DNA from: a virus
Length of the DNA stretch: 64,000 nt
IMG/VR virus record: IMGVR_UViG_3300035661_000009
Coordinates: 64,001-128,000 of that record
Strand: one strand, 5' to 3'
The notes under the pieces were generated by a model. The model did no database searches. It saw nothing but the letters and a program-made list of their open reading frames with translations, and was not told the DNA's origin. This document shows positions 1,547-29,695 of the stretch, piece after piece; positions within the stretch are counted from its first letter, which is position 1; each line of letters opens with the position of its first letter. Position numbers and translations under genes: made by a program.

Positions 1547-1981
1547 TTAACCTACTGAAATTATTTCTATATTTAAGTCTTTAGCGTAATGTGCGATTCT
1601 AGGGTTGGTTATGGGCCCATAATGACATATGCGTCTAAGACCTACAGTTACTAAGAATTTAAATGTATACCAATTTGGACAATCGGTTATGTAAATAGTT
1701 GCGTTTTCAAACTTAGCATTACCGGTTCGGATAGCTTTGCCAATGGCTACGTTTTCGGCGTTAATAGTCGCTACATATCGCTCATCGGTTTGGGGCTTAT
1801 ATTGTTCCCCACCTAAGTGAGTAGAAGTACCCGTAGACATTATCTTATTCCCTTCCGCTATAACGGCACCGCGCACCTTTCTTTTGCCTGGATTTTTTAG
1901 ATTAGTTACTGCTCCGGGATCTTGCTGACCTTGCATGGTAGCTAGCTTAAGAAAATGTAGGTCTAGTCGGGTTAAGGGCAT
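1547..1981 (-). CDS. dCMP/cytidine deaminase-fold protein, zinc ligands lost
   Basis: KVRGAVIAEGNKIMSTG, INAENVAI (HAE becomes NAE), ATIYITDCPNWYTFK (PCxxC lost), VGLRRICH. Confidence 0.7.
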   Translation of the reverse strand: MPLTRLDLHFLKLATMQGQQDPGAVTNLKNPGKRKVRGAVIAEGNKIMSTGTSTHLGGEQYKPQTDERYVATINAENVAIGKAIRTGNAKFENATIYITDCPNWYTFKFLVTVGLRRICHYGPITNPRIAHYAKDLNIEIISVG

Positions 1982-3100: not shown

Positions 3101-3979
3101 ATGCCTAGATATAAAAATATAAGAAAACCGAAGATTGAAACAAAGCAAGAAGCAAGCTCTAAGCCTAAGACCCTAGAAGAGACATCAAAACTAAGAAAGC
3201 AAATTGAACACGCACAAATTGAACACGCGAAGCAACAACTAGGTTCTAGATTAGATATGACCGCAGAAGAAGCTATTGAAAGCATTGTAAAAAATGAAGA
3301 ATCGCTTACTTGGGAAGATTGTGCAGACTTAGATTCGCCGGTTACTATAAGTAACCTCAAGGCCAGAAATACCTTAGGTAGAATAGACTTATTGACAGGC
3401 ATGGCAAAATCCGAAGAGTTAAGTGTAGTGCTTTCTAAACAATTTAAAGAACAAAAAGATATTAACGCCGCCTTAACGCTTCAACTAGAAGATGCTAGAG
3501 AAAACTTACGAGTTGAAGATCTAACTGTGGAAAGCTTAGAGACGGCTTTAATCGAATTTTCTGACGAAAATGTAAGATTAGAAAACATACTTCAATCAAT
3601 CGACTCCTGGCTAGATGAGCGCTCAACAGGCCTAGCTAGAATAGACGAAAATAGAACCGAAGAGCAAAAAGCAAAGCAACAGCACGATTTAATCAATACA
3701 GTTAAAGATGTGTTTAGCGAGTTAATACTGGCCCATGCCGATATTACATTATTAAAAGATCAATTAAAAACTCATCAAACTATTTGCGAAGGCGGCGATT
3801 TAATAAATGAAATGTTAAATAAAAGGATTAAAAATCTTGAAAATGATAATGAATTAATAGATGCGCAAAAACAAGCAAGAACTCTAAAAAAGGCTTTAAA
3901 AACTATTATAAAAAATAAAGGCGTTTGGCGAGTTGGCGACCTTATGGATTTAAACGATTTACTAAAAGGATTAGAATAA
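3101..3979 (+). CDS. Hypothetical coiled-coil protein
   Basis: 292-aa ORF rich in E/K/L with heptad-like periodicity. Confidence 0.7.
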   Translation: MPRYKNIRKPKIETKQEASSKPKTLEETSKLRKQIEHAQIEHAKQQLGSRLDMTAEEAIESIVKNEESLTWEDCADLDSPVTISNLKARNTLGRIDLLTGMAKSEELSVVLSKQFKEQKDINAALTLQLEDARENLRVEDLTVESLETALIEFSDENVRLENILQSIDSWLDERSTGLARIDENRTEEQKAKQQHDLINTVKDVFSELILAHADITLLKDQLKTHQTICEGGDLINEMLNKRIKNLENDNELIDAQKQARTLKKALKTIIKNKGVWRVGDLMDLNDLLKGLE

Positions 3980-4539
3980 TGACCAGTTTGAAGCTACCGA
4001 AAGATAGAAACCTATTTTTTACGAGACAAGTAACCCAAGATAGCATTGCAACTTTAACTAAAGAGCTTTTAGATATAGAAACAAACGATATTGAACTAAA
4101 GAAGCAATATGCTTATCATGAACTCACCTACACACCAAAACCGATTAATTTGTTTATAGATAGTTTTGGAGGAAGTGTATACCAAGGATTTGGAGTTATT
4201 GGCGTAATGGAGAAGCTAACTACACCCATTACTACGATAGTTACGGGGTGCGCAATGTCTTGCGGCTTTCTTATGGCAATGCATGGAAACCACAGGTTAG
4301 CATACAAACACTCGACGTTAATGTTTCATCAAATCTCTTCTGGGGTTTGGGGGAAGCTAAATGATATGGAGGCCGACGTAGAAGAAGCCAAGAGACTACA
4401 AAAGATTATCTTCAAAATGACCCTTAAGAAGACTAAGATAAGCAAAGAAACTCTTGAAAAGAACTATAAACGTAAAATTGACTGGTTTATGCCAGCAGAA
4501 GAAGCGTTGAAAAATGGCGTAATAGATGGAATAATATGA
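3979..4539 (+). CDS. clpP: ClpP-family serine protease
   Basis: INLFIDSFGGSV, VTGCAMSCGFL (catalytic Ser), TLMFHQISSG (His), DWFMPAEEALKNGVID (Asp). Start placed at ATG 3979, overlapping the upstream stop. Confidence 0.88.
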   Translation: MTSLKLPKDRNLFFTRQVTQDSIATLTKELLDIETNDIELKKQYAYHELTYTPKPINLFIDSFGGSVYQGFGVIGVMEKLTTPITTIVTGCAMSCGFLMAMHGNHRLAYKHSTLMFHQISSGVWGKLNDMEADVEEAKRLQKIIFKMTLKKTKISKETLEKNYKRKIDWFMPAEEALKNGVIDGII

Positions 4540-8497: not shown

Positions 8498-8539
8498 GGT
8501 GATTCTCCTGTACTTCGTTGACTGCGTTTGACTGCGTTT

Positions 8540-8745
8540 GACTGCGTGCTGCCTGCTCAGTATCTCATGCCTTGATGCTGCCGTCTACACCCCTTCGATT
8601 CTTTTTTTGGGGTCTGCGCACCGTAGGGAAACCTTCTCCCTCTCTCCCTGCCCGCCCACCTCGCCCCGGTGTTTGCTGCGTGCTGCGCGCTGCGTGCTGC
8701 GTGCTGCCTGCTCAGTATCTCATGCCTTGATGCTGCCTGCAAGCG
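8540..8745 (-). promoter_or_regulatory. Two duplicated leftward promoters (TAGACG or TTGCAG-17-GATACT)
   Basis: About 40-bp direct repeat CTGCGTGCTGCCTGCTCAGTATCTCATGCCTTGATGCTGCC at ~8542 and ~8697, each with an identical 17-bp spacer. Confidence 0.55.
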
Positions 8746-8803: not shown

Positions 8804-8858
8804 TGGCAGTATTTGGCAGTATTTGGCAGTATTTGGCAGTATTTGGCAGTATTTGGCA
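8804..8858. repeat. Tandem repeat TGGCAGTATT x5.5
   Basis: Read directly; sits at the GC-rich/AT-rich boundary. Confidence 0.9.
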
Positions 8859-9161: not shown

Positions 9162-9374
9162 TTACTTATTCTTACTCTTACTCTTATTCTTATTCTTACT
9201 TTTACTACTGTCATCAAACATTACAAATAGAACACCTATAACTAAACCTATAACTAGACCTATAAAACAACTAATAATAGATTTATTATATATACCACCT
9301 AATACTACACCTACCATTGAATACACAAGTATTGTAAATATATCTACCAAGCTATTCACCAAGCTATTCACCAA
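9162..9374 (-). CDS. Small two-helix membrane protein with Lys/Ser/Asn tail
   Basis: Two hydrophobic segments followed by SKSKNKNKSKSKNK. Confidence 0.55.
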   Translation of the reverse strand: MVNSLVNSLVDIFTILVYSMVGVVLGGIYNKSIISCFIGLVIGLVIGVLFVMFDDSSKSKNKNKSKSKNK

Positions 9375-9408: not shown

Positions 9409-9433
9409 AAAAAAGCCCTAATATTATAGGGTT
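9409..9433 (-). terminator. Intrinsic terminator candidate at the 3' end of the peptide array
   Basis: ACCCTA-TAATAT-TAGGGC followed by T6 on the minus strand. Confidence 0.55.
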
Positions 9434-9549: not shown

Positions 9550-9720
9550 TTAATTACTCTGACTACCACTATAACTATAACTAACACTACCACTATAACT
9601 AACACTACCACTAACACTACCACTATTACTACCACTACCACTAAGACTACTACGCCAAAGCTTTATATACCAAGGTATTGGAGGGTAATATCTAGTAAGT
9701 CTCATAATTCTAGTTTTCAT
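9550..9720 (-). CDS. Ser/Gly-rich array peptide (56 aa, not in ORF track)
   Basis: MKTRIMRLTRYYPPIPWYIKLWRSSLSGSGSNSGSVSGSVSYSGSVSYSYSGSQSN. Confidence 0.75.
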   Translation of the reverse strand: MKTRIMRLTRYYPPIPWYIKLWRSSLSGSGSNSGSVSGSVSYSGSVSYSYSGSQSN

Positions 9721-9744
9721 GATATTGGTTAGTTATTTATTTAG

Positions 9745-9999
9745 CTAATTACTCTTACTACCACTACCACTATTACTAACACTATTACTACCACTATTAC
9801 TAAAACTAACACTATAACTACCGCTATAACTACCGCTAAAACCATAACTACGACTACCACTACTACTATAACTAACACTACCGCTACCACTACGACTATA
9901 ACTATTACTACTACGCCAATGCTTCAAATACCAAGGTATTGAAGGATATGGTCTAGTAAGCCTAGTAAGTCTGGTATGTCTAGTTTTCATGGTTTTCAT
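9745..9999 (-). CDS. Ser/Gly-rich array peptide
   Basis: Leader YPSIPWYLKHWR + (XS)n core. Confidence 0.75.
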   Translation of the reverse strand: MKTMKTRHTRLTRLTRPYPSIPWYLKHWRSSNSYSRSGSGSVSYSSSGSRSYGFSGSYSGSYSVSFSNSGSNSVSNSGSGSKSN

Positions 10000-10018
10000 G
10001 GTATTGGATAGTTATTAG

Positions 10019-10258
10019 TTATTTACTCTGACTACCACTACCACTAAGACTATCACTACCACTACCACTAAGATTACCACTACCACTAACACTATAACTA
10101 CCGCTAAAACCATAACTAAAACTACCACTATTACTATGACTACCACCAAAACTGCCACTACCACTAAGACTACCACTACTACGCCAATACTTTATATACC
10201 AAGGTATTGGAGGATAACGTCTAGTAAGCCTAGTAAGTCTGGTATGTCTAGTTTTCAT
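10019..10258 (-). CDS. Ser/Gly-rich array peptide
   Basis: Leader YPPIPWYIKYWR + (XS)n core. Confidence 0.75.
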   Translation of the reverse strand: MKTRHTRLTRLTRRYPPIPWYIKYWRSSGSLSGSGSFGGSHSNSGSFSYGFSGSYSVSGSGNLSGSGSDSLSGSGSQSK

Positions 10259-10278
10259 GGTTTTAATTAGTTATTTAG

Positions 10279-10497
10279 CTATTTACTCTGACTACCACTA
10301 CCACTATTACTAACGCTACCACTATTACTAACGCTACCACTACTACCACTATAACTACGACTACCACTATAACTATTACTATAACTATAATTACCACTAA
10401 CACTATAACTAACACTATTACGCCAATGCTTCAAATACCAAGGTATCGAAGGATGACATCTGGTAAGTCTAGTATATCTGGTAAGTCTAGTTTTCAT
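10279..10497 (-). CDS. Ser/Gly-rich array peptide
   Basis: Leader HPSIPWYLKHWR + (XS)n core. Confidence 0.75.
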   Translation of the reverse strand: MKTRLTRYTRLTRCHPSIPWYLKHWRNSVSYSVSGNYSYSNSYSGSRSYSGSSGSVSNSGSVSNSGSGSQSK

Positions 10498-10528
10498 GGT
10501 ATTGGTTAGTTATTGGTTAGTTATTTAG

Positions 10529-10816
10529 CTATTTACTCTGACTACCGCTATAACTATTACTACCACTAAAACTATTACTACCACTAAAACTATAACTACC
10601 ACTACCACTAAGACTACCACTAAGACTACCACTCTGATTACCACTCTGATTACCACTACTACTATAACTAACACTACCACTAACACTACCACTATTACTA
10701 CCACTACCACTACTACTACCATGCCAAAACTTCATATACCAAGGTATTGGAGGATAATTTCTAACTACTCTGGTAATTCTAGTAAGCCTAGTATATCTGG
10801 TAAGTCTGGTTTTCAT
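10529..10816 (-). CDS. Ser/Gly-rich array peptide
   Basis: Leader YPPIPWYMKFWH + (XS)n core. Confidence 0.75.
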   Translation of the reverse strand: MKTRLTRYTRLTRITRVVRNYPPIPWYMKFWHGSSSGSGSNSGSVSGSVSYSSSGNQSGNQSGSLSGSLSGSGSYSFSGSNSFSGSNSYSGSQSK

Positions 10817-10836
10817 GGTATTGGTTAGTTATTTAG

Positions 10837-11130
10837 CTATTTACTCTGACTACCACTATAACTACGACTACCGCTATCACTAAGACTACCACTATAACTA
10901 CCACTATAACTACGACTACCACTAAACCTATCACTACCACTACGACTACCACCAAGACTATAACTATAATTACCACTAAGACTATAACTATAATTACCGC
11001 TAACACTATAACCACCACTACCACTACCACTATAACTACTAGTACGCCAAAACTTCAAATACCAAGGTATTGGAGGATGATTTCTAACTACTCTAGTAAG
11101 TCTAGTAAGTCTGGTATGTCTAGTTTTCAT
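10837..11130 (-). CDS. Ser/Gly-rich array peptide
   Basis: Leader HPPIPWYLKFWR + (XS)n core. Confidence 0.75.
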   Translation of the reverse strand: MKTRHTRLTRLTRVVRNHPPIPWYLKFWRTSSYSGSGSGGYSVSGNYSYSLSGNYSYSLGGSRSGSDRFSGSRSYSGSYSGSLSDSGSRSYSGSQSK

Positions 11131-11153
11131 GGTTTTAATTAGTTATTAGATAG

Positions 11154-11408
11154 TTATTTACTACTACCACTACCACTACGACTATAACTATCACGACCAC
11201 TACCACTATAACTAACATTATAGCTATCACTACCACTATAACCACCACCACTATCACTATCACTATAACTATCACGACCACTACCACTACCACTAACACT
11301 AGAATTACCACTACCACTATAACTACTACTACGCCAAAGCTTCAAATACCAAGGTATCGAAGGGTAATATCTAACTACTCTAGTAAGTCTAGTTTTCATG
11401 GTTTTCAT
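11154..11408 (-). CDS. Ser/Gly-rich array peptide
   Basis: Leader YPSIPWYLKLWR + (XS)n core. Confidence 0.75.
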   Translation of the reverse strand: MKTMKTRLTRVVRYYPSIPWYLKLWRSSSYSGSGNSSVSGSGSGRDSYSDSDSGGGYSGSDSYNVSYSGSGRDSYSRSGSGSSK

Positions 11409-11432
11409 GGTATTGGTTAGTTATTTATTTAG

Positions 11433-11520
11433 CTAATTACTCTGACTACCACTACCACCAAAACCACTTATTTTGTTCCCAATGTTTCTTGATTGGTTTC
11501 GGTTTCCATAAAATGGCCAT
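11433..11520 (-). pseudogene. Degenerate or frameshifted array unit
   Basis: ATG 11520 gives MAILWKPKPIKKHWEQNKWFWW*; the canonical tail SGFGGSGSQSN* lies in another frame with no start. Confidence 0.55.
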
Positions 11521-11570
11521 TATAAAGGCCACAATTGGCTTATGAGAGCCATTGACCCCGACCGCTCCCC

Positions 11571-11600
11571 ACCCTAGCACACTGGCGCGCGTGCCGTCAA
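11571..11600 (-). promoter_or_regulatory. Conserved early promoter TTGACG-18-TAGGGT inside the array
   Basis: Member of the repeated promoter family. Confidence 0.75.
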
Positions 11601-11708
11601 GGGGTTAGAGAGCCTGCTAGGATTAAATTTATTGAGGTAAGGGCTTGACAAGTTATCGATTAAATGAAATAACCCACGCCCCTCACAGACATATTTTTAC
11701 ATTTCGTA

Positions 11709-11975
11709 TTAGCTACCAGCACCAAAACTAGTACCAAAACTACCACTACCCCTACGACTAGCACCAAAACTACCACTACCACTAAAACTAGCACCAAAAC
11801 TAGCACCAAAACTAGCACCAAAACTATAACTACCACTAAGACTACCAGTAAGACTACCACTACCACTATAACTAATACTACCATTACCACCGATACCACT
11901 ACCACTAAGACTACGCCAATAGCTTAAATGTCTAGGTATTGGAGGATACGGTCTAACTACTCTATTGATTTTCAT
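11709..11975 (-). CDS. Ser/Gly-rich array peptide, divergent (FGAS repeats)
   Basis: Leader YPPIPRHLSYWR; core contains SFGA x4. Confidence 0.72.
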   Translation of the reverse strand: MKINRVVRPYPPIPRHLSYWRSLSGSGIGGNGSISYSGSGSLTGSLSGSYSFGASFGASFGASFSGSGSFGASRRGSGSFGTSFGAGS

Positions 11976-12002
11976 GGTATTAATTAGTTATTAGTTATTT
12001 AG

Positions 12003-12245
12003 CTAATTACTCTTACTACCACTATAACTACGACTATTACTATTACTACGACTACCACTATAACTACGACTACCACTATTACTATTACTAAGACTACCAC
12101 TATAACTACGACTACCACTATAACTAAGACTAACACTATAACTAAGACTACCACTACTACTATAACTAGGCCAATAGCTTAAATACCAAGGTATTGAAGG
12201 ATACTGTCTGGTAAGTCTGGTAAATCTAGTAAGTCTAGTTTTCAT
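12003..12245 (-). CDS. Ser/Gly-rich array peptide
   Basis: Start reassigned to ATG 12245 (MKTRLTRF); leader YPSIPWYLSYWP. Confidence 0.75.
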   Translation of the reverse strand: MKTRLTRFTRLTRQYPSIPWYLSYWPSYSSSGSLSYSVSLSYSGSRSYSGSLSNSNSGSRSYSGSRSNSNSRSYSGSKSN

Positions 12246-12298
12246 GATATTGGTTAATGCTATTTTCGCTATTATTTGTGATCTTAACAACTAATAAC

Positions 12299-12550
12299 CT
12301 AATTATCACCATAACTATAACTACCACTATAACTAAGACTAACACTAAGACTAACACTAAGACTACCACTAACACTACCACTATAATTACCACTAAGACT
12401 ATAATTACCACTAAGACTATCACCAAAACTACCACTAAAACTATCACCAAAACTACCGCTACCACTACCACTATTACTACCACTATAACTACGCAAATAT
12501 CTTTTGGACCAAGGTCTTGGAGGATGATTTCTGGTAAGTCTAGTTTTCAT
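12299..12550 (-). CDS. Ser/Gly-rich array peptide
   Basis: Variant leader HPPRPWSKRYLR. Confidence 0.75.
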   Translation of the reverse strand: MKTRLTRNHPPRPWSKRYLRSYSGSNSGSGSGSFGDSFSGSFGDSLSGNYSLSGNYSGSVSGSLSVSLSVSLSYSGSYSYGDN

Positions 12551-12565
12551 GATATTAATTAGTTA

Positions 12566-12826
12566 TTAGTATTTACCCTGACTACCACTATAACTACGAC
12601 TATAACTACCACTACTACTAAAACTACCGCTACTACTAAAACTACCACTATGACTACCACTATAACTACGACTAAAACTACCGCTATCACTAAGACTACC
12701 ACTACGACTATAACTAAGACTACCACTACTACTATAACTACGCCAATAGCTTAAATACCAAGGTATTGAAGGATAATTCCTTGTAAGTCTAGTAAGTCTA
12801 GTATATCTGGTAAGTCTAGTTTTCAT
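12566..12826 (-). CDS. Ser/Gly-rich array peptide
   Basis: Leader YPSIPWYLSYWR. Confidence 0.75.
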   Translation of the reverse strand: MKTRLTRYTRLTRLTRNYPSIPWYLSYWRSYSSSGSLSYSRSGSLSDSGSFSRSYSGSHSGSFSSSGSFSSSGSYSRSYSGSQGKY

Positions 12827-12858
12827 GGTATTGGTTAGTTATTTATTTAGTTATTTAG

Positions 12859-13095
12859 CTAATTACCCTTACTACCGCTACCGCTACCACTATAACTATA
12901 GCTACCACTAACACTACCGCTACGACTACCGCTAAGACTATAACTAAAACTATAACTACCACTAACACTATAACTACCACTATAACTACTACTATAACTA
13001 CTACTATAACTACTACCATGCCAAAACTTTTTATACCAAGGTATCGAAGGATGATTTCTAACTACTCTGGTAAGTCTAGTTTTCATGGTTTTCAT
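12859..13095 (-). CDS. Ser/Gly-rich array peptide
   Basis: Leader HPSIPWYKKFWH. Confidence 0.75.
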   Translation of the reverse strand: MKTMKTRLTRVVRNHPSIPWYKKFWHGSSYSSSYSSSYSGSYSVSGSYSFSYSLSGSRSGSVSGSYSYSGSGSGSKGN

Positions 13096-13114
13096 GATAT
13101 TGGTTAGTTATTAG

Positions 13115-13372
13115 TTAATTACCCTGACTACCACTAAGACTATAACCAGTACTACGACTAACACTATAACTAAGACTACTACTAAGACTAGTACTAAGAC
13201 TACCACTATCACTAACACTACCGCTATAACTAACACTAAAACTATCACTACCACTAAAACTATAATTACCACTATAATTATAACTAAGACTACGACTATA
13301 ACTACGCCAATAGCTTAAATACCAAGGTATCGAAGGATAATGTCTGGTAAGTCTAGTGAGTCTAGTTTTCAT
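13115..13372 (-). CDS. Ser/Gly-rich array peptide
   Basis: Leader YPSIPWYLSYWR. Confidence 0.75.
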   Translation of the reverse strand: MKTRLTRLTRHYPSIPWYLSYWRSYSRSLSYNYSGNYSFSGSDSFSVSYSGSVSDSGSLSTSLSSSLSYSVSRSTGYSLSGSQGN

Positions 13373-13387
13373 GATATTAATTAGTTA

Positions 13388-13654
13388 TTAGTATTTACCC
13401 TGACTACCACTATTACTAAAACTACCACTATTACTAAAACTACCACTATTACTAAAACTACCACTATAACTAACACTACCGCTATGACTACCACTATAAC
13501 TAAGACTAACACTAAGACTACCACTAAGACTACCGCTACCACTATAACTAACACTATAATTATCACTATTACTACTACGCCAAAACTTTATATACCAAGG
13601 TCTTGAAGGATATGGTCTAACTACTCTAGTGAGTCTAGTAAATCTAGTTTTCAT
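13388..13654 (-). CDS. Ser/Gly-rich array peptide
   Basis: Leader YPSRPWYIKFWR. Confidence 0.75.
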   Translation of the reverse strand: MKTRFTRLTRVVRPYPSRPWYIKFWRSSNSDNYSVSYSGSGSLSGSLSVSLSYSGSHSGSVSYSGSFSNSGSFSNSGSFSNSGSQGKY

Positions 13655-13698
13655 GGTATTGGATAGTTATTTATTTAGTTATTTATTTAGTTATTTAG

Positions 13699-13980
13699 TT
13701 ATTTACTCTGACTACCACTAAAACTAAGACTAAAACTAAGACTATCACTAACACTACCGCTACCACTATTATTACGACTACCACTATTACTACCACTATT
13801 ACTACCACTATTACTACCACTATAACTAAGACTACCGCTATAACTACGATTATAACTACCACTACCACTAACACTAAACCTATAACTAAGACTACTACTA
13901 AGACTACTAGTATGCCAAAACTTCAAATACCAAGGTATTGGAGGATGATGTCTGGTAAGTCTCATAATTCTGGTTTTCAT
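13699..13980 (-). CDS. Ser/Gly-rich array peptide
   Basis: Leader HPPIPWYLKFWH. Confidence 0.75.
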   Translation of the reverse strand: MKTRIMRLTRHHPPIPWYLKFWHTSSLSSSLSYRFSVSGSGSYNRSYSGSLSYSGSNSGSNSGSNSGSRNNSGSGSVSDSLSFSLSFSGSQSK

Positions 13981-14012
13981 GGTATTGGATAGTTATTTAT
14001 TTAGCTAATTAG

Positions 14013-14231
14013 CTAATTACCCTTACTACCACTATAACTAAAACTATAATTACCAGTACCACTATAACTATAACTACCACTAACACTATGACCACCACCA
14101 CTATAACTAACACTATTACTAACACTATTACTAACACTATAACTACCGCTACCACTATAACTACTACTACGCCAAAGCTTTATATACCAAGGTATCGAAG
14201 GATAATGTCTAACAATTCTATTGGGTTTCAT
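14013..14231 (-). CDS. Ser/Gly-rich array peptide
   Basis: Start reassigned to ATG 14231 (MKPNRIVR); leader YPSIPWYIKLWR. Confidence 0.75.
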   Translation of the reverse strand: MKPNRIVRHYPSIPWYIKLWRSSSYSGSGSYSVSNSVSNSVSYSGGGHSVSGSYSYSGTGNYSFSYSGSKGN

Positions 14232-14284
14232 TGTATTGGTTAATGCTATTTTCGCTATTATTTGCGATCTTAACAACTAATAAC

Positions 14285-14563
14285 CTAATTATCGCCATAA
14301 CTACCACTACCGCTACCACTACCGCTAATACTAAGACTATAACTACCGCTACCACTAAAACTACCGCTACCACTAAAACTACCGCTACCACTATCGCTAT
14401 AACTATCACTAACACTACGACTATAACTACTACTACCACTATCACTACCACTATAACTACCACTACCACTACTACTAAAACTACCGCTACCACTACTACT
14501 ACGCCAAAACTTCATATACCAAGGTATTGGAGGATAATTTCTAACTACTCTATTGGTTTTCAT
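14285..14563 (-). CDS. Ser/Gly-rich array peptide
   Basis: Leader YPPIPWYMKFWR. Confidence 0.75.
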   Translation of the reverse strand: MKTNRVVRNYPPIPWYMKFWRSSSGSGSFSSSGSGSYSGSDSGSSSYSRSVSDSYSDSGSGSFSGSGSFSGSGSYSLSISGSGSGSGSYGDN

Positions 14564-14575
14564 GGTATTGGTTAG

Positions 14576-14800
14576 TTATTTACTCTGACTACCACTACGA
14601 CTAACACTATAACTACGACTACCACTAACACTACCACTATCACTATAACTAAGACTATAACTAGCACTAACACTACCACTAACACTAGCACTACGACTAC
14701 GACTACCACTATCACTAAGACTACTACTATGCCAAAACTTTATGGGCCAAGGTATTGAAGGATATGGTCTAACTACTCTGGCAACTTTATTGGGTTTCAT
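14576..14800 (-). CDS. Ser/Gly-rich array peptide
   Basis: Leader YPSIPWPIKFWH. Confidence 0.75.
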   Translation of the reverse strand: MKPNKVARVVRPYPSIPWPIKFWHSSSLSDSGSRSRSASVSGSVSASYSLSYSDSGSVSGSRSYSVSRSGSQSK

Positions 14801-14844
14801 AGTTTCATAGTTTTATGTGTTTATGTGTTTTATGGATTTTGTAA

Positions 14845-14883
14845 ACACAAATAGCCACTACAACAATTAGCTGTAGTGGCTAT
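14845..14883 (-). terminator. Hairpin terminator candidate after the globular gene in the array
   Basis: ATAGCCACTACA..TGTAGTGGCTAT 12-bp stem (14851-14883) followed by TTGTGTTT on the minus strand. Confidence 0.6.
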
Positions 14884-14932
14884 CAGCTTGCGACTTAATG
14901 CTTGTTACTTAATGCTTGTTACTTATTACTTA

Positions 14933-15214
14933 TTACTTCATTCGGTGAAGGACGGTGCCACCACGATCAATAATCATTTCTTCGGCGCCTTCATGCTTTT
15001 CCACGCGCTTGCCCTTGCCAGCGTAGAAATCCTTGTAATTGCCGGTTTCATAAACCGTGGCAGTATCCTTAAAAACGAAAACAGTTCCGGTCAGGGCAAC
15101 CAGCGTACCAATATACTGATACGTAGGAGTGCGGATATGATACTTCGCACCCTCAACAAAAATACCCATCTGGAGTTCACTATCAGCAACAACATCACGC
15201 ATTTCGTTGGACAT
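14933..15214 (-). CDS. Small beta-rich protein embedded in the peptide array (possibly Sm/SH3-like barrel)
   Basis: GAKYHIRTPTYQYIGTLVAL..TATVYETG; clear paralogue at 37304-37603; fold is inferred. Confidence 0.8.
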   Translation of the reverse strand: MSNEMRDVVADSELQMGIFVEGAKYHIRTPTYQYIGTLVALTGTVFVFKDTATVYETGNYKDFYAGKGKRVEKHEGAEEMIIDRGGTVLHRMK

Positions 15215-15257
15215 ATTTTCTTTCGGGTTAAGAGTGAAGAATTAAAGAATTAAAGGG

Positions 15258-15470
15258 TTATTTACTCTGACTACCACTACGACTATAACTAGAACTACGA
15301 CTACCACTACCGCTACTACTACCACTAAACCTATCACTACCACTAAAACTAAGACTAAAACTACTACTACCACTATCACTAACACTAAGACTACCGCTAC
15401 GCCAAAACTTCAAATACCAAGGTATCGAAGGATGATTTCTAACTACTTTGGCAACTTTATTGGGTTTCAT
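15258..15470 (-). CDS. Ser/Gly-rich array peptide
   Basis: Leader HPSIPWYLKFWR. Confidence 0.75.
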   Translation of the reverse strand: MKPNKVAKVVRNHPSIPWYLKFWRSGSLSVSDSGSSSFSLSFSGSDRFSGSSSGSGSRSSSYSRSGSQSK

Positions 15471-15595
15471 GGGCTAATTTGCCTAATTGATGATATAATT
15501 CAATGCCTGATTTACGCTCTTTTCAAGGTCAGAACCCATTGCTTTATTGCCTCGTTTGCGGACTACTTAGAGGGTTGGGGTGTGCGACCTGCCTC

Positions 15596-15624
15596 ACCCT
15601 ATCACGGGCGATCTGTAGCGTCAA
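15596..15624 (-). promoter_or_regulatory. Conserved early promoter TTGACG-17-TAGGGT inside the array
   Basis: Member of the repeated promoter family. Confidence 0.75.
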
Positions 15625-15880
15625 GCGACCGTCAAGCGACCGTCAAGCGACCGACGACGGTCAAGCGGTTGCGGTTATATACAGCGACATTGGCCAATAA
15701 TTGTTACGTTTCCCATACCCATTTCATGGCAACGCTTATTACAAATATCCTGTGAAGCGGAATAATGATAAATGCTCCAAAGAAAGGCAGACGAGAACGA
15801 AACGAGCACGGTCAAACAAATAACACCAAAAATCTTCATATCAAGCCTTTTCAGTTAAATTAAAGAGTTAAATTAAAGAG

Positions 15881-16102
15881 TTAATCATCCTGACTACCAC
15901 TAAGACTATTACTACCACTAAAACTACCGCTATAACTATCACTATAACTAAGACTATCACTACCACTATCGCTAACACTAAGACTATCACTACCGCTATA
16001 ACTAAGACTATCACTACGACTACCACTATAACTACGCAAATATCTTTTGGACCAAGGTATTGAAGGATAATGTCTGGTAAGTCTGGTATGTCTAGTTTTC
16101 AT
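15881..16102 (-). CDS. Ser/Gly-rich array peptide
   Basis: Leader YPSIPWSKRYLR. Confidence 0.75.
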   Translation of the reverse strand: MKTRHTRLTRHYPSIPWSKRYLRSYSGSRSDSLSYSGSDSLSVSDSGSDSLSYSDSYSGSFSGSNSLSGSQDD

Positions 16103-16123
16103 GATATTGGTTAGTTATTTACT

Positions 16124-16354
16124 CTAACTACTACGACTACCGCTACCACTAAAACCATAACTATAATTACCACTAAAACTATAATTACCGCTATCGCTAA
16201 CACTATCACTATCACTACCACTATAACTAAGACTAACACTATCACTACCACTATGACTAACAGTATAACTATCACTATCACTACTACGCCAATACTTTAT
16301 ATACCAAGGTCTTGGAGGATGATTTCTAGTAAGTCTAGTAAGTCTAGTTTTCAT
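16124..16354 (-). CDS. Ser/Gly-rich array peptide
   Basis: Leader HPPRPWYIKYWR. Confidence 0.75.
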   Translation of the reverse strand: MKTRLTRLTRNHPPRPWYIKYWRSSDSDSYTVSHSGSDSVSLSYSGSDSDSVSDSGNYSFSGNYSYGFSGSGSRSS

Positions 16355-16387
16355 GGTATTGGATAGTTATTTAGTTATTTATTTACT

Positions 16388-16630
16388 CTAACTACTACGA
16401 CTACCACTACCACTATAATTACCACTATAATTACCACTATAATTACCACCAAAACTACCACTATCACTATCACTATCACTAACACTAAGACTACCGCTAT
16501 AACTACCACTATTACTAAAACTACCGCTACCGCTACAACTACTACGCCAATACTTCAAATACCAAGGTCTTGGAGGATGATTTCTAACTACTCTGGTAAG
16601 CCTGGTAAGTCTAGTAAGTCTAGTTTTCAT
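16388..16630 (-). CDS. Ser/Gly-rich array peptide
   Basis: Leader HPPRPWYLKYWR. Confidence 0.75.
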   Translation of the reverse strand: MKTRLTRLTRLTRVVRNHPPRPWYLKYWRSSCSGSGSFSNSGSYSGSLSVSDSDSDSGSFGGNYSGNYSGNYSGSGSRSS

Positions 16631-16663
16631 GGTATTGGATAGTTATTTAGTTATTTATTTACT

Positions 16664-16885
16664 CTAACTACTACGACTACCACTACCACTATAATTGCCA
16701 CTAAAACTATAATTACCACTATAACTACCACCAAAACTATCACTATCACTAACACTAAGACTATCACTACCACTAAGACTACCGCTATAACTACCACTAT
16801 TACTAAAACTACCACTACCGCTACAACTACTACGCCAATAGCTTAAATACCAAGGTATTGAAGGATGATTTCTAACAATTCTCAT
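16664..16885 (-). CDS. Ser/Gly-rich array peptide (first unit, short leader)
   Basis: MRIVRNHPSIPWYLSYWR + (XS)n core. Confidence 0.72.
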   Translation of the reverse strand: MRIVRNHPSIPWYLSYWRSSCSGSGSFSNSGSYSGSLSGSDSLSVSDSDSFGGSYSGNYSFSGNYSGSGSRSS

Positions 16886-29136: not shown

Positions 29137-29394
29137 TTAATTACCACTACTGCCACTAACACTATAACTGCCACTAACACTATAACTACCACTCTGACTA
29201 CTACTACTACTATAACTACTGCCACTAACACTATAACTACCACTAAAACTATAACTAACACTACCACTAACACTAAAACTATCTCTATCACTACCACTAT
29301 AACTATAATTACCACTACGCCAATGCTTCAAATACCAAGGTATTGGAGGATAATTTCTAACTACTCTAGTATGACTAGTAAGTCTAGTTTTCAT
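29137..29394 (-). CDS. Ser/Gly-rich peptide, satellite copy
   Basis: Leader YPPIPWYLKHWR + (XS)n core. Confidence 0.75.
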   Translation of the reverse strand: MKTRLTSHTRVVRNYPPIPWYLKHWRSGNYSYSGSDRDSFSVSGSVSYSFSGSYSVSGSSYSSSSSQSGSYSVSGSYSVSGSSGN

Positions 29395-29404
29395 AATTAC
29401 TTAT

Positions 29405-29695
29405 TTAATTACCACTACTGCCACTAACACTATAACTACCACTATAACTACTACCACCAAAACTACTACCACTATAACTACCACTATTACTAACACCATT
29501 ACTGACACTACCACTACCACTATAACTACGACTACGACTACCGCTACCACTATAACTACTACCACCAAAACTACCACTACCACTACCACTAAGACTACCA
29601 CTATAACTATTACTACTACGCCAATGCTTCAAATACCAAAGTATTGAAGGATGACATCTGGTAAGTCTGGTAAGTCTGGTAAGTCTAGTTTTCAT
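29405..29695 (-). CDS. Ser/Gly-rich peptide, satellite copy
   Basis: Leader HPSILWYLKHWR + (XS)n core. Confidence 0.75.
   Translation of the reverse strand: MKTRLTRLTRLTRCHPSILWYLKHWRSSNSYSGSLSGSGSGSFGGSSYSGSGSRSRSYSGSGSVSNGVSNSGSYSGSSFGGSSYSGSYSVSGSSGN

Follow-up and report, generated by a model that had tools for sequence, protein, structure and literature searches.

How does a single phage come to carry 25 small genes whose variable parts are all written in one six-letter grammar? The question is raised by a 64,000-nt stretch of DNA from an uncultured tailed phage (hereafter the window), which corresponds to bases 64001-128000 of one 160,015-bp contig (39.7% GC; IMG/VR record IMGVR_UViG_3300035661_000009). 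In this window, 23 short genes lie head to tail on the minus strand, from position 16885 down to 9550, and two outlying members of the same family are found on the same strand at 29695-29405 and 29394-29137. The genes follow a three-part plan, comprising a leader, a core in which serine alternates with a second residue X, (Ser-X)n, and a short tail (GSQSK, GSKGN, QGKY, YGDN or GSRSS). The products are 56-97 amino acids (aa) long and the cores 33-71 residues, and the inter-gene spacers of approximately 20-30 nt are rich in A, T and C and have stop codons in each of the three frames. The cores are strings of AGT codons alternating with NNT codons, which an earlier note on this DNA had read as the signature of a diversity generator based on recombination and slippage.

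We lean, with modest confidence, towards a different answer: the genes would represent a young repeat family shaped by slow in-frame block duplication and inter-copy exchange, and not an active mutation machine. In this scenario, the (AGT-NNT)n cores most likely grew from an AGT-GGT-like seed as blocks of 6, 12 and 18 nt were repeatedly duplicated in tandem, with unequal exchange between units adding to both their building and their reshuffling. The family would be young, evolving in concert and confined to this phage. The use of AGT alone for serine and the T-ending X codons would be inherited marks of common origin, and only bases 1 and 2 of alternate codons would have diverged, almost to saturation. 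The outcome would be a single conserved leader followed, in 25 genes, by 25 distinct (Ser-X)n peptides, with stop freedom and safety of the serine register following automatically from the repeat structure. Because no mutator gene is present and the sampled population shows a fixed array, diversification is expected to be unprogrammed, a slow evolutionary process operating via replication slippage and recombination. The amino-acid-changing X variants may have risen to high frequency, probably because selection favoured amino-acid variety and did not act on nucleotides.

The AGT-NNT pattern itself is real and far beyond chance. Our codon table covers the 25 cores (1,419 codons) and has two controls, namely 88 long open reading frames (ORFs) of the same phage and the leaders of the 25 genes. 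It agrees with the description given previously, that AGT (rarely AGC) alternates with NNT and that TCN codons are nearly absent: serine is encoded 626 times by AGT, 46 times by AGC and twice by TCT. Glycine is represented by about 240 GGT and about seven GGC codons, with no GGA or GGG; leucine is always CTT (49 of 49), valine is GTT in 51 cases with one GTC, arginine is CGT in 33 cases versus five AGR, and tyrosine is TAT in 115 cases and TAC in two. The codons AAT (65), GAT (45) and TTT (48) have no C-ending partners. In the long ORFs, by comparison, AGT accounts for 18.6% of serine, GGT for 31% of glycine, CTT for 20% of leucine and CGT for 22% of arginine codons. In total, about 93% of core codons have a third-base T versus 35% in the long ORFs, and the exceptions are mostly the tail codons CAG, AAA and AAG. 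No purine occurs at the 4-fold third positions of about 380 core codons, no leucine is written as TTR although TTA is the commonest leucine codon of the phage, and C makes up 4.2% of the coding strand in the cores versus 19% in the leaders.

The variation of the cores is found in the first two bases of the X codons. Diversity at these two positions is approximately 0.66 each, which is 5-15 times the synonymous level; base 1 is G, T, C or A in 369, 174, 105 and 99 codons, respectively, and base 2 is G, A, T or C in 305, 271, 156 and 15. The alternating-serine register, which slippage had been expected to preserve, is mostly kept, but not strictly: 85% of adjacent residue pairs alternate between serine and non-serine, and the non-serine runs comprise 541 of length 1 and 52 of length 3 (the latter being substitutions at a serine position), besides 11 of even length and 23 double-serine runs. 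Translational adaptation was considered as a cause of the codon choice and rejected, as the 12 tRNAs of the phage include Tyr-GTA and Asn-GTT and no Ser-GCU or Gly-GCC.

Tandem duplication of blocks within the cores is well marked. The examples of local 12-18-nt re-duplication named previously (SGSFSN and SGSN, three times each, and the SFGA repeats) are all present, and a null model in which the X codons were shuffled within each core, with register and composition kept, shows that such blocks are in excess. Exact tandem 12-nt (4-codon) blocks number 53 versus 15.9 expected, an approximately 3-fold excess, and exact tandem 18-nt (6-codon) blocks number 27 versus 1.4 expected, approximately 19-fold; neither value was reached in any of 2,000 shuffles. 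Identical neighbouring X codons, with a 6-nt period, are depleted (73 versus 110 expected), and G-G neighbours number 46 versus 63 expected, glycine tending to alternate with other residues. The proposal of hexamer slippage is thereby borne out with respect to in-frame block duplication, but the quantum inside the cores is 12-18 nt and not the single hexamer.

Comparison of the paralogues supports the exchange of sequence between units and their concerted evolution. In a 48-nt block of the leader, 84 of 105 biallelic site pairs were incompatible in the four-gamete test, and the Hudson-Kaplan minimum indicates at least seven exchanges (Rm) within these 48 nt. Leaders and tails have a mean identity of 71-74%, and values of 88-100% occur in some pairs. 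The mean identity of cores between paralogues is 0.69 versus 0.68 +/- 0.07 (maximum 0.80) with a hexamer-shuffled partner, and only two pairs, at 0.88 and 0.82, stand above this null. Similarity of leaders and similarity of cores are uncorrelated (r = -0.09). The closest paralogues, genes 22 and 23 (16388 and 16664), have cores that differ by two 6-nt indels and, in about 55 codons, by six substitutions, of which two are synonymous (T/C) and four are non-synonymous, the latter all at base 2. This corresponds to one indel per three substitutions, in-frame indels being frequent relative to substitutions.

A two-gene block, consisting of a gene with a YGDN tail, a shared spacer and a gene with a K[SG]N tail, occurs twice in the array, at 12003-12550 and 14013-14563. 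Between the two copies, tails and spacers are 0.91-0.94 identical and cores 0.71-0.76, which is the null level; the flanks are homogenised and the cores are not.

The third-base T does not appear to require a rule of its own. NNT had been regarded as a safeguard that permits diversification without stops, but in our analysis the third-base T of the cores is no more conserved than the synonymous sites of the leaders, and a special rule for T is therefore not needed. In the leaders, CCT is found in 25 of 25 and 24 of 24 cases, CGT in 20 of 20 and GTT in 13 of 13; synonymous polymorphism is limited to TCA/TCG, ACT/ACC and TTG/TTA, all of them transitions, with 4-fold diversity averaging 0.09. In the cores, the third base has a diversity of about 0.13 in AGY and 0.055 in GGN, with lower values in other codons. 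Low synonymous divergence or concerted evolution would be enough to explain the uniform T. Furthermore, AGY and TCN serine codons cannot be interconverted in one step, and the AGT-only serine therefore fits common descent.

Protection from stops is real but partial. Changes at bases 1 and 2 of an NNT codon cannot give a stop, and the 30 nonsense targets among 8,514 possible base 1-2 changes in the cores all lie in tail or AGR codons; TAT, however, accounts for 8% of codons, and a single third-base change can turn it into a stop. Counting all possible single-base changes, the nonsense share is 2.2% in the cores versus 4.7% in the background. This protection is a by-product, and selection for it is unsupported.

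Several observations weigh against the young-family account. The differences between genes 22 and 23 show no excess of amino-acid changes (4 versus 2, tiny numbers), and strong ongoing diversifying selection is therefore not visible. A Shine-Dalgarno (SD)-like motif was found for 0 of the 25 genes versus 39 of 89 long ORFs. No relative by which changes could be polarised or the family dated was found in the collections searched. The other samples in which the array recurs (see below) are probably from one project, as their identifiers are adjacent, and their consensus contigs hide minority variants. AGC makes up 6.8% of its codon pair versus about 1.6% for C-ending X codons, a significant difference that is unpredicted by simple neutrality. 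Finally, the predicted RNA folding energy of the native cores is -0.135 kcal/mol/nt versus -0.227 kcal/mol/nt for synonymous recodings at genome codon usage; folding is weaker in 25 of 25 units, and T may thus reflect selection.

The last two points belong to a credible but unlikely alternative, according to which selection at the nucleotide level keeps the third-base T and keeps C off the coding strand, so that the family may be old and its grammar maintained. Such selection could act for an unstructured mRNA or single-stranded DNA of a G-rich repeat, or for preserved repeat homology and evolvability. The scarcity of C in the cores relative to the leaders, the missing purines at 4-fold third positions and the missing TTR leucine codons agree with it, and an open mRNA could matter for initiation where SD motifs are absent. 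On the other hand, the synonymous sites of the leaders are just as uniform without the grammar, for which recency and concerted evolution suffice, and weak folding is automatic for any C-poor alphabet. The sole polymorphism seen between samples replaces a third-base T by G and is retained in an assembly, T/C differences separate the closest paralogues, and an unrelated, possibly non-coding tract is equally pure.

A stronger functional claim, which we consider distinctly unlikely, is that the AGT-NNT code is a selected evolvability device. The 25 (Ser-X)n peptides with their leader tag, safe from stops and from loss of the register, would diversify by block duplication and exchange of units, either tracking a variable host target or feeding one leader-recognising partner. 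If true, this would be the logic of diversity-generating retroelements (DGRs) and prochlorosins, with neither a reverse transcriptase nor any of the searched enzyme families of peptides that are synthesized ribosomally and modified post-translationally (RiPPs).

The comparison of samples bears on whether the cores are being renewed at present. The exact 70-aa product of gene 19 was found on four contigs. A 159,891-bp contig from another sample showed 0 differences over 20,213 nt, a stretch that takes in the 23 tandem genes completely. A third sample yielded a 1,610-nt contig that was also identical, and a 4,612-nt contig from a fourth carried one single-nucleotide polymorphism (SNP) and no indel. 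The SNP, at window position 14405 in gene 17, replaces the third-base T of a core codon by G, turning GAT (Asp) into GAG (Glu), and breaks the grammar. The repeat-number polymorphism of a contingency locus was thus absent from 20,213 + 4,612 + 1,610 nt of consensus contigs of three samples. An unrelated metagenome tract with the same grammar (AGT 104, CGT 48, GGT 37; third-base T 97%) has alleles that differ between samples by 6-, 12- and 24-nt indels, so that slippage variation of this type can be seen in assemblies. This tract (contigs L141, L142, L155 and L158) stays open for about 220-236 codons, in which the pairs AGT-CGT (Ser-Arg) and AGT-GGT (Ser-Gly) predominate, and is possibly non-coding.

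The machinery of a DGR was likewise sought. A PF00078 search of the 160-kb genome, which is 99% complete according to CheckV, detected the positive controls and no reverse transcriptase, and no template/variable repeat pair differing only at adenines was present: genes 22 and 23 differ by G/T, A/T, G/A and T/C changes and by 6-nt indels. A DGR is excluded on these two grounds, the missing reverse transcriptase and the lack of adenine specificity in the closest copies.

The original proposal of a recombination- and slippage-based generator consequently stands in part: block duplication, scrambled cores and exchange between units are seen, but an active generator is not. The cores are largely invariant across the sampled contigs, the outcome that the earlier note had named in advance as speaking against it, and the genome has no reverse transcriptase that could act as a dedicated mutator. 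The idea of a fast generator is disfavoured. We regard it as very unlikely that a high-rate process resembling a contingency locus keeps renewing the cores within the population by slippage and gene conversion, even though the perfect short tandem blocks are slippage substrates, the indels between the closest paralogues are frequent, the leaders are mosaic and the unrelated tract does vary in length. As in a contingency locus, the repeat tract lies inside the coding region; its units of 6, 12 and 18 nt are, however, multiples of three, all 25 genes are in frame, and no on/off switching would result. Identical adjacent hexamers, which would be the best substrate for slippage, are depleted.

Which frame is read is indicated mainly by the leader. 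It begins with ATG, is basic and aromatic, and conforms to MKT(RLT)n..R-x-[HY]-P-[SP]-I-P-W-Y-x-K-x-W-R. Alignments A1 and A2 show a conserved leader followed by a variable core; in A1, the R and P columns of the leader are invariant, and P-W and W are conserved at >=90%. Its codons differ from those of the cores: serine is TCA, TCG or TCC, varying synonymously between TCA and TCG, arginine is AGA, and 44% of codons end in T. At the N-terminus stand one to four T-R-X units encoded by a 9-nt repeat, ACY-AGA-NNT (e.g., 10770-10816 and 16585-16630). The variable codon of these units is again NNT (CTT, CAT, TAT, TTT or ATT), and in three units, at 9745, 11154 and 12859, a 9-nt duplication spans the start codon (MKTMKT).

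The ATG, leader, core, non-NNT tail and stop share one frame in 25 of 25 units, and we infer that the serine frame is the translated one. Leader conservation cannot be attributed to RNA structure, because no conserved structure was found in leader and spacer (-0.54 kcal/mol, no covariation). The +1 frame and antisense frame 0 are free of stops over about 1,400 codons each, because such openness is automatic under the AGT-NNT grammar, and no conserved start was found in the alternative frames; dual coding in the +1 frame was set aside for want of such a start. It is highly improbable that the serine-frame ORFs are not the functional product and that the DNA acts as a DNA or RNA minisatellite or is read in another frame (+1, as all-hydrophobic Val/Leu/Ile peptides, or antisense 0, as Thr-rich ones), since the absence of SD motifs and homologues, the predicted disorder, the two open frames, the third-base T that becomes the second base of every hydrophobic +1 codon and the same grammar in a tract of doubtful coding status are opposed by the start, leader, tail, stop and three-frame spacer stops shared by all units, the synonymous variation of leader serine, the lack of conserved starts and RNA structure, and the automatic openness of the other frames.

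The nature of the products was approached by structure prediction and homology searches. AlphaFold2 with the 25-row alignment gave a predicted local distance difference test score (pLDDT) of 52.6, with the core below 50 and without strands or any other core secondary structure, i.e., disorder is predicted. The beta-strand with one all-serine face that the earlier note had proposed thus received no support from this model, which does not refute it either. A prediction of a four-copy complex scored 0.04 and weighs neither for nor against self-assembly. The ESM Atlas contained only the phage's own record, whose model (confidence 0.47) has beta-solenoid neighbours and is too weak to use. Pfam had no family for the peptide or the neighbouring ORFs, and the whole peptide had no match among Pfam and known leader families (Nif11, NHLP and others). 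YcaO, LanB, LanC, radical SAM and protein kinase genes were absent from the phage genome, the LanB search being one without a positive control; a GT2-like match was sub-threshold and lies about 74 kb outside the window. We infer that the products may be disordered serine-rich peptides recognised via their shared leader, in the manner of a precursor or substrate library.

No relatives were recovered in the following searches. A word-indexed protein search gave no homologue of the leader, and the leader pattern was absent from scans of IMG/VR and JGI metagenomes. A profile hidden Markov model (HMM) run against 1.84 billion representative proteins found the leader only in the phage's own 70-aa record, its other matches being unrelated long serine-rich proteins that matched in the core only. 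Searches of GenBank phages with tblastn and blastn gave no relatives, and synteny via the baseplate-J gene gave partial matches of <=39% identity, with arrays at none of those loci. With a generic DNA pattern of the grammar alone, ordinary microsatellites drowned out everything else, and many of these came from giant-virus bins; a stricter version found nothing in IMG/VR and only unrelated tracts in metagenomes.

The members of the family, all on the minus strand, are numbered here by ascending coordinate. Gene 1 (9550..9720; 56 aa) has a leader, a (Ser-X)n core and the tail GSQSN, and gene 2 (9745..9999; 84 aa) has the duplicated start MKTMKT. They are followed by gene 3 (10019..10258; 79 aa), gene 4 (10279..10497; 72 aa), gene 5 (10529..10816; 95 aa), gene 6 (10837..11130; 97 aa), which served as search query and folded sequence, and gene 7 (11154..11408; 84 aa). 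Gene 8 (11709..11975; 88 aa) is a divergent member with the SFGA repeats. The core of gene 9 (12003..12245; 80 aa) is 0.82 identical to that of gene 11 (12566..12826; 86 aa; tail QGKY), and between them lies gene 10 (12299..12550; 83 aa; tail YGDN). Genes 12 (12859..13095; 78 aa) and 13 (13115..13372; 85 aa) precede the two genes with triplicated blocks, gene 14 (13388..13654; 88 aa; SGSFSN) and gene 15 (13699..13980; 93 aa; SGSN). Next are gene 16 (14013..14231; 72 aa), gene 17 (14285..14563; 92 aa), which holds the only between-sample SNP, and gene 18 (14576..14800; 74 aa). Gene 19 (15258..15470; 70 aa; P0005) is the sole member of the family indexed in large protein collections. Gene 20 (15881..16102; 73 aa), gene 21 (16124..16354; 76 aa) and gene 22 (16388..16630; 80 aa) lead to gene 23 (16664..16885; 73 aa), the first gene of the array, which has a truncated leader (MRIVR). 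The outlying pair comprises gene 24 (29137..29394; 85 aa) and gene 25 (29405..29695; 96 aa).

A non-repeat gene of 93 aa (14933..15214, minus strand; no Pfam family) is embedded in the array, with a terminator-like hairpin 3' of it (14850..14884, minus strand); a second such hairpin (9416..9431, minus strand) lies just downstream of the last array gene and closes the array. Immediately beyond it, a 70-aa ORF (9162-9374, minus strand) combines a membrane-like, hydrophobic body with a (Ser/Asn-Lys)n tail at its C-terminus, encoded in AGTAAG-type hexamers (Tandem Repeats Finder unit CTTACT x7 at 9165-9206), and represents a second small gene with a hexamer-repeat tail. Between genes 19 and 20, a 54-aa ORF (15675-15839, minus strand) is hydrophobic in an N-terminal segment and rich in Cys at its C-terminus, and belongs to no Pfam family. 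Perfect short direct repeats also occur in non-coding DNA beside and inside the array, at 8518-8547, 8674-8712, 8804-8858 and 15619-15653, with the units TTGACTGCGT x3, TGCTGCG x5.6, TGGCAGTATT x5.5 and CGTCAAGCGAC x3.2. Further products of the genome include baseplate proteins, baseplate-J among them, two Amidoligase_2 enzymes, a class-II glutamine amidotransferase, a ClpP-family protease (window 3925-4539, plus strand; E 1e-29) and a dCMP deaminase (a dCMP/cytidine deaminase-like protein, window 1547-1981, minus strand), the latter two being 5-8 kb from the array.

Overall, the grammar offers a clean natural case of a repeat-born coding tract exploring amino-acid space in frame and mostly without stops, with internal controls in the same genes (leader versus core, and synonymous versus X-codon sites). 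It raises the question of what drove amino-acid variants to approximately 66% diversity with synonymous sites at 4-13%. If the pattern is maintained or renewed, it would constitute a new, retroelement-free route to viral peptide libraries; if not, it would mark a young family of repeats whose pedigree is unusually tidy.

Among known systems, the prochlorosin (ProcA) precursors are reportedly multi-copy RiPP precursors with a conserved leader and a hypervariable core. The phage family resembles such libraries in having many short paralogues in one genome, a conserved N-terminal leader and a divergent C-terminal core, with core divergence uncoupled from leader divergence. In contrast to RiPP systems, LanB, LanC, YcaO and radical SAM are missing among the phage genes, so that the short ORFs show the leader and the variable core without a cognate modifying enzyme of these families in the phage genome. 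The leader matches no known family, and the cores have neither Cys nor a recognisable cleavage motif; they are of low complexity, follow one hexamer grammar and lie in genes arranged in strict tandem on a phage.

In DGRs, the AAY codon logic lets the first two bases of pyrimidine-ending codons vary in a stop-proof manner (PMC7826257). Changes at the first two bases of the phage X codons similarly sample many amino acids and no stops. Unlike a DGR, however, the phage has no reverse transcriptase and no template/variable pair, its differences are not adenine-specific, the invariant AGT itself contains A, and the array is invariant between samples. Alternating Ser-X tracts are also known from serine-rich repeat (SRR) adhesins (PMC3131266), which share the long alternating Ser-X runs. 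The SRR glycoproteins are adhesins of very large size that are exported, anchored in the wall and equipped with binding domains, and a locus of their own serves their glycosylation and export, whereas the phage products, with X residues that are mostly G, Y, N, V, L, F, D or R, are 56-97 aa long and have no signal peptide or anchor; the peptides carry no hydrophobic signal and do not match the large anchored adhesin with glycosyltransferases and accessory Sec that typifies the SRR system, and the only glycosyltransferase-like match in the genome is the sub-threshold GT2-like one.

The family comes close to coding micro- and minisatellites. Codon-pure repeats of this kind evolve by replication slippage (PMC9990875), and alternative frames in tandem repeats stay open (PMC12871928). 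The phage cores are likewise codon-pure short repeats with whole-unit in-frame indels and open, hydrophobic alternative frames, and the unrelated AGT-NNT tract (L141/L142/L158), with its 6/12/24-nt alleles, is a direct minisatellite example. Unlike minisatellites, the phage repeat is impure, with two of six positions nearly saturated, it is divided among 25 separately initiated genes, and the array has no length polymorphism in the available assemblies. What is new is the combination: 25 separately initiated phage genes behind one leader, in which two of the six repeat positions are close to saturation and the other four are almost frozen.

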